Positions 55,774 through 55,790 of a stretch of DNA of 64,000 nt are shown one piece after another. The position numbers and the translations under genes were made by a program. The notes under the pieces are model-generated. The model made no database searches. It was not told the DNA's origin and was given only the letters and a program-made list of their open reading frames with translations. The stretch's first letter is position 1, and each line of letters starts with the position of its first letter. This stretch comes from Escherichia coli (GTDB lineage: Bacteria > Pseudomonadota > Gammaproteobacteria > Enterobacterales > Enterobacteriaceae), in the NCBI RefSeq assembly GCF_046105845.1, contig NZ_CP151004.1; one strand, written 5' to 3'.

Positions 55774-55790
55774 ATGTGCACCAGGTGCAC
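55774..55790. promoter_or_regulatory. MhpR operator palindrome in the mhpR-mhpA divergent promoter region
   Basis: tgtgcaccaggtgcacc is a near-perfect 17-bp palindrome (reverse complement ggtgcacctggtgcaca) between the divergent genes; matches the operator I recall for MhpR. Confidence 0.6.

Follow-up and report, generated by a model that had tools for sequence, protein, structure and literature searches.

Does the near-perfect palindrome lying between the divergent genes mhpR and mhpA of E. coli constitute the site through which MhpR, an IclR-type regulator, activates the mhpABCDFE operon? The original prediction, made by reading the DNA letters alone, answered that it does, and we examined this answer in the window, that is, the whole stretch of 64,000 nucleotides (64 kb) in which the palindrome had been noticed. 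The MhpR operator, its regulator, the effectors and the interplay with CRP were worked out in E. coli K-12 between 2003 and 2009, and EMSA and footprint experiments with MhpR are already in print. Against this background, the palindrome is the already known MhpR operator, a textbook-level element and not a discovery.

Results

The palindrome is identical to the published MhpR operator

The palindrome is located inside the 190-bp spacer that separates mhpA (- strand) from mhpR (+ strand) (Table 1). The mhpR product presented both an HTH_IclR domain (53.6 bits) and an IclR_C domain (48.2 bits), the two of them exceeding the Pfam cut-offs. The lacI and lacZ genes came after mhpR on the + strand and the chromosome was E. 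coli 042-like. In the homologous region of K-12 (strain C600), the RefSeq annotation showed the same genes and the same start for the 277-aa mhpR; an additional in-frame ATG exists at 55812, the annotated start being the one at 55824 instead. The spacer was 100% identical to that of E. coli 042, differed from that of K-12 at two positions, neither of them within the operator, and was found in 4896 out of 5426 complete E. coli genomes.

Table 1. Coordinates, strand and supporting details of the features discussed in the mhpB-mhpR region of the window.
Feature	Coordinates	Strand	Details
mhpB	53023-53967	-	Adjoins mhpA
mhpA, 3-(3-hydroxyphenyl)propionate hydroxylase, leading gene of the MhpR-controlled operon	53969..55633	-	NCBIfam equivalog NF004827, 1285 bits versus cut-off 966
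Putative TATACT -10 hexamer of Pa, the mhpA promoter	55731..55736	-	Invariant in the Enterobacteriaceae alignment
Putative weak TTGTAG -35 hexamer of Pa	55753..55758	-	16-bp spacer to TATACT; TTG conserved across taxa
GTTTT block between the operator and the Pa -35	55761..55765	-	High information, site-matrix positions -14 to -11; all clades
MhpR operator, 17 bp, TGTGCACCAGGTGCACC	55775..55791	.	mhpA-strand form is the published GGTGCACCTGGTGCACA
Conserved core, perfect 15-bp palindrome	55776..55790	.	GTGCAC twice (55776-55781 and 55785-55790), 3 bp between
Block CGTTGTTTTA, mhpR side of the operator	55793..55802	.	Invariant in 10 Enterobacteriaceae; TTG[TA]TTTA in 75 unique sites
Candidate weak CRP site TGTCAATTAATATGCA	55813..55828	.	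Overlaps the mhpR ATG; 4 mismatches to TGTGA-N6-TCACA
mhpR, IclR-family activator, 277 aa	55824..56657	+	NCBIfam equivalog NF007341 (MhpR type), 345 bits versus cut-off 269

An exact-match search located a single copy of the 17-mer in the window, within the surrounding sequence ...cccgaaTGTGCACCAGGTGCACCacgttgtttta.... The string was thus present as predicted, although its true position was shifted one base to the right of the interval originally assigned to it (55774-55790). Its description as a near-perfect 17-bp palindrome was accurate: the central 15 bp formed a perfect 7-N1-7 palindrome with one central base (GTGCACC-A-GGTGCAC), while the outermost pair, T55775 and C55791, was mismatched. 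Since GTGCAC is its own reverse complement, the 17-mer doubles as a 9-bp direct repeat (GTGCACCAG / GTGCACCAC). The last base of the palindrome was separated by 32 nt from the A of the annotated mhpR ATG, close to the distance of about 34 nt initially proposed, and its centre lay 150 nt from the mhpA ATG. As a separate observation, the hexamer GTGCAC (an ApaLI site) occurred seven times in the 64 kb, compared to the ~16 copies expected at equal base use, and the operator hexamers accounted for two of these seven.

The 17-mer was the exact reverse complement of the E. coli MhpR motif that is listed in Table 1 of PMC8222616 and credited there to Torres et al. 2003, and a full-text search for the motif string returned this article as the sole match. 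The MhpR operator of the K-12 promoter Pa, which serves mhpABCDFE (Torres et al. 2003, J Biol Chem 278:27575), consists of the identical 17 bp in the same intergenic region and with the same neighbours. The K-12 derivatives C600 and MG1655 also carry the same 17-mer as the window.

Conservation of the dyad across species

Palindromes of this geometry are not rare. Perfect 7-N1-7 palindromes appeared six times in the 64-kb window, near the expectation of ~4, and the number rose to 23 when spacers of 0-4 were allowed; the significance of the element must therefore come from its context, and the case for an operator rests on conservation. In order to define this conservation, one genome per species was scanned with MhpR, which produced 80 loci with orthologues that were 55-98% identical. 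The set included Escherichia, Citrobacter, Kluyvera, Shimwellia, Pluralibacter, Pseudomonas, Azotobacter, Marinobacterium, Zobellella, Nitrincola and Xanthobacter, all of which were among the site-bearing genera, together with Edaphovirga, Oceanospirillum and Vibrio. Upstream of mhpR (within ~320 nt), GTGCAC-N3-GTGCAC was exact in 69 out of the 80 species and retained at least 11 of its 12 positions in 78 of them. The sole exceptions were the two Vibrio loci (L021 and L029), in which a recognisable site was absent within 320 nt. The motif accompanied mhpR regardless of whether the divergent gene was mhpA, mhpD or mhpB-like, and the spacer around the dyad was otherwise unalignable across species. 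Among the 75 unique orthologous sites, the twelve hexamer positions showed little or no variation, those of the centre followed the pattern Y-N-R at three positions and the flanking pair was mostly T...A, which gives TGTGCAC-YNR-GTGCACA as the cross-species consensus.

These data bear on the simplest alternative, namely that the palindrome arose by chance and lacks a function. The near-expected number of 7-N1-7 palindromes speaks in its favour, and indeed the palindrome alone is not beyond chance. The conservation is, however, beyond chance: a site kept in 78 out of 80 species amid an unalignable spacer already refutes a fortuitous origin, as does the identity to an experimentally defined operator, leaving this explanation with a negligible probability.

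Besides the site upstream of mhpR, the ~450 kb of mhpR loci contained four other exact copies of GTGCAC-N3-GTGCAC, compared to ~0.03 expected. These second copies (L040 2671, L045 3301, L054 3323 and L079 3343) were located just 3′ of mhpR, ahead of a downstream catabolic gene, which in the three Marinobacterium loci was mhpB-like. Such an arrangement suggests that these organisms may have two MhpR-controlled promoters.

The dyad symmetry could also reflect a hairpin in RNA or DNA, such as an attenuator or a terminator-like element in the mhpR leader. A consensus scan picked out GTGCACCAGGTGCAC together with CACGTTGTTT as resembling a terminator on the + strand, and a T-rich block followed the dyad in all clades. 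Nevertheless, the predicted fold (-9.2 kcal/mol, z = -0.5) was no better than that of shuffled sequences, an Rfam search gave no match near the gathering score, 4-5 nt intervened between the stem and the T-run, and no + strand gene ended upstream of the site. The stem positions were invariant rather than covarying. Nine single-base variants of the hexamers were found, six producing mismatches and three G-T pairs, and none was ever compensated on the other arm, which argues for base-specific protein recognition over a hairpin. Considering the z-score, the lack of compensatory changes and the lack of an Rfam match, we rejected both an intrinsic terminator and a structured RNA, and a hairpin function is very improbable.

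Position of the dyad relative to the catabolic promoter

Scanning the spacer with a generic sigma-70 model revealed no strong promoter, consistent with an activator-dependent Pa, and the promoter elements were inferred from conservation instead. The putative -35 and -10 hexamers of Pa (Table 1) were both within blocks that were invariant among Enterobacteriaceae. Read in the sense of the catabolic operon, 72 out of 78 loci had a -10-like hexamer starting 39-41 nt past the final dyad base (39 nt in the window), its form being TATACT in 47 of them, CATACT in 22 and TATAAT in three; the remaining six loci carried TAGAAT, TAAAAT or TATCCT at the same place. In contrast, the distance from the dyad to the mhpR start ranged from 26 to 267 nt among species. 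The dyad is phased to the divergent catabolic promoter, as expected for an activator site.

From these elements, Pa transcription would start at around 55724-55725. Because the -10 hexamer starts 39-41 nt away, the centre of the dyad (55783) would be placed at about -58 to -59, an activator position just upstream of the -35. Torres and colleagues reportedly placed the MhpR operator at -58 and the CRP site at -95.5, and the position deduced here for the operator matches the former. The prediction that the palindrome occupies the position expected for an activator site was consequently right in its outcome but not in its reference point, the proper one being Pa (dyad centre at ~-58) and not the variable distance to the mhpR start.

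Its proximity to mhpR raises the alternative that the dyad is also, or instead, an autoregulatory operator of the mhpR promoter Pr, where bound MhpR would repress or modulate its own transcription. At only 32 nt from the mhpR ATG, the site necessarily falls within the promoter or leader of mhpR or borders on them, and IclR-family regulators generally control their own expression (PMC8222616). However, a PmhpR-lux fusion was expressed constitutively whether PP or 3HPP was present or absent, a behaviour that its authors describe as in agreement with Torres 2003 (PMC11237407), and the phasing of the dyad follows the catabolic promoter rather than the mhpR start. An autoregulatory role is therefore improbable. 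Pr itself could not be placed from the sequence: TACAAT at 55754-55759 was a good -10 in Enterobacteriaceae, although it had no -35 partner and was not conserved in Pseudomonas.

On the other side of the inferred Pa start, the mhpA 5′ leader contained a block of ~35 nt (~55692-55727; TTTGTTAAAAA.ATGTAAATGATTTTTTATTGTG, + strand) that was highly conserved in Escherichia, Citrobacter and Kluyvera and missing in Pseudomonas, whose leader is ~60 nt shorter. This leader block resembled 55795-55814 (direct repeat D1).

The palindrome was also compared with the CRP consensus. No match to TGTGA-N6-TCACA with up to three mismatches was present in 55634-55823, which excluded the palindrome as a CRP site. 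The candidate TGTCAATTAATATGCA, with its four mismatches, is probably a weak CRP site: its centre (55820.5) was 37.5 bp from the operator centre and further upstream of Pa, near -95.5, the position reportedly given by Torres and colleagues, so that its placement combines that figure with the geometry of the spacer. Elsewhere in the window, the CRP site of the lac promoter (57832-57847) read TGTGAGTCAGCTCACT, with one mismatch to the consensus pattern. The K-12 lac site reads TGTGAGTTAGCTCACT, which would make the window form a strain-specific variant of this classic site.

Conserved flanks and a putative link to NtrC

Conservation was not restricted to the 17 bp. The blocks CGTTGTTTTA and AAAAC (GTTTT in the Pa sense) were conserved from Enterobacteriaceae to Pseudomonas and Marinobacterium, forming an off-centre inverted repeat around the dyad. 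Given these conserved flanking blocks, the functional site may extend beyond the 17 bp, and the block at 55793-55802 may be an extended MhpR contact. Taken further, the 17-bp operator could be the core of a ~45-bp module, TAAAACAACG + GTGCAC-N3-GTGCAC + N10 + GTTTT, conserved from Escherichia to Pseudomonas and Marinobacterium, in which the flanks would be contacts of an MhpR tetramer or a site for a second regulator and the 9-bp repeat polymorphism described below would retune the promoter geometry. We consider this extended organisation possible, though rather unlikely.

NtrC is a candidate for such a second regulator because the strongest NtrC genomic SELEX peak is found in this spacer. The peak (88%) was mapped in the K-12 mhpR/mhpA spacer at 367650, and a further peak (71%) was found at mhpC/mhpD (PMC8743547). 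Binding of NtrC to the site, in addition to MhpR, would tie the mhp genes to nitrogen status. The NtrC box, TGCACCAnnnTGGTGCA, and the MhpR operator have the TGCACCA heptamer in common, and the operator carries it twice, as perfect half-sites at 55777 and 55786; moreover, a box with three mismatches was present at 55786-55802. Nonetheless, boxes with three mismatches were at chance level in the window (four found versus four expected). Unlike those of the NtrC box, the operator half-sites either repeat directly at a 9-bp interval or form an inverted pair whose centre is 1 bp and not 3 bp. For the canonical NtrC dyad, TGCACCA-N3-TGGTGCA, the best local match had three mismatches, the region offering half-sites only. 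SELEX is an in vitro method with a resolution of hundreds of bp, an in vivo effect was not found in the literature examined, and the deep conservation of the site tracks mhpR and not nitrogen genes. The SELEX peak could stem from cross-binding in vitro or point to a genuine connection with nitrogen, and we regard NtrC binding to this site as improbable.

Natural variation of the operator in E. coli

Over 45 nt, 1487 out of 4900 E. coli records were identical to the window and 3363 presented one difference. The five non-identical records that were sampled (three with one difference and two with two; L084-L088) all carried an A at the 17th position, which converts the operator into a perfect 17-bp palindrome (TGTGCACCAGGTGCACA). 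An A was also mostly found at this position in other Escherichia, Citrobacter and Kluyvera, and the C at 55791 was common to the window and K-12. The final C is probably a minority allele, with most E. coli carrying the perfect 17-bp palindrome.

A second polymorphism affected the number of hexamers. In E. coli, the 9-bp unit GTGCACCAG (55776-55793 in the window) varies in number like a short tandem repeat, whose usual state is two hexamers; strain TB4019 presented three (L082 1143-1169) and strain Z1323HEC0011 four (L083 174-209). Such indel alleles were rare: 18 out of 4900 records fell within the 90-95% identity band, a count that is an upper bound because BLAST joins overlapping pieces to full coverage and the frequency of the expansion was read from identity bands only. 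With every added unit, the sequences on the mhpR side, among them the putative CRP site, are displaced from Pa by another 9 bp.

Discussion

The analyses presented here make it almost certain that MhpR, an IclR-type activator, uses the palindrome as its operator, with a centre ~58 bp upstream of the transcription start at Pa, a weak sigma-70 promoter, which effector-favoured binding of MhpR would activate together with CRP. The activator site for mhpABCDFE put forward in the original prediction is supported by the identity with the published motif, by the mhpR/mhpA/mhpB context and by the fixed phasing with the -10, all of which were observed here together with the conservation of the hexamers.

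The mechanism would proceed as follows. A symmetric MhpR oligomer would recognise both GTGCAC hexamers. Loading of MhpR with 3-hydroxyphenylpropionate, and also with phenylpropionate, would favour binding. Once bound, MhpR would allow cAMP-CRP to occupy the next site upstream, a poor CRP site, and both proteins would jointly recruit RNA polymerase to Pa. In the literature on this system, the operator sequence, the effector-stimulated binding, the activation of Pa and the MhpR-dependent binding of CRP have all been demonstrated. Specifically, PP, DHPP and 3HPP bind MhpR and stimulate its contact with the operator in the mhpABCDFE promoter (PMC11237407, with reference to Torres 2003 and Manso 2009), MhpR activates Pa in a 3HPP-dependent manner and is indispensable for CRP binding (PMC8753852), and a CRP site upstream of mhpR/mhpA is recorded in RegulonDB. 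Our own inferences concern the precise point where transcription starts, the choice of the -35 hexamer, the coordinates of the CRP site and the stoichiometry and oligomeric state of MhpR on the DNA.

The value of this result is confirmatory, as a reader working from sequence only located a true operator. Its additions are modest: a cross-species footprint, GTGCAC-N3-GTGCAC, at a fixed distance of 39-41 nt from the -10, the conserved flanks and two small E. coli polymorphisms, one of which suggests that K-12 owes its imperfect operator to a minority allele. Such features could be of use for regulon annotation and for 3HPP or phenylpropionate biosensors built from Pa.

The organisation of this site resembles that of other regulators of the family. 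The operators of PobR, PcaU, PcaR, HmgR and TphR likewise consist of a dyad of 15-20 bp between the divergent regulator gene and catabolic operon, and the IclR operators of aromatic catabolism, including that of MhpR, have been grouped under a GTNCG-N5-6-CGNAC-type consensus (PMC8222616). In contrast, PcaU, PobR and HmgR require an extra external direct half-site, whereas in the MhpR operator the conserved flanks (55761-55765 and 55793-55802) bear no likeness to the half-site. Unlike the other IclR-family operators of aromatic catabolism, the MhpR operator is built from the half-site GTGCAC with a 3-bp centre.
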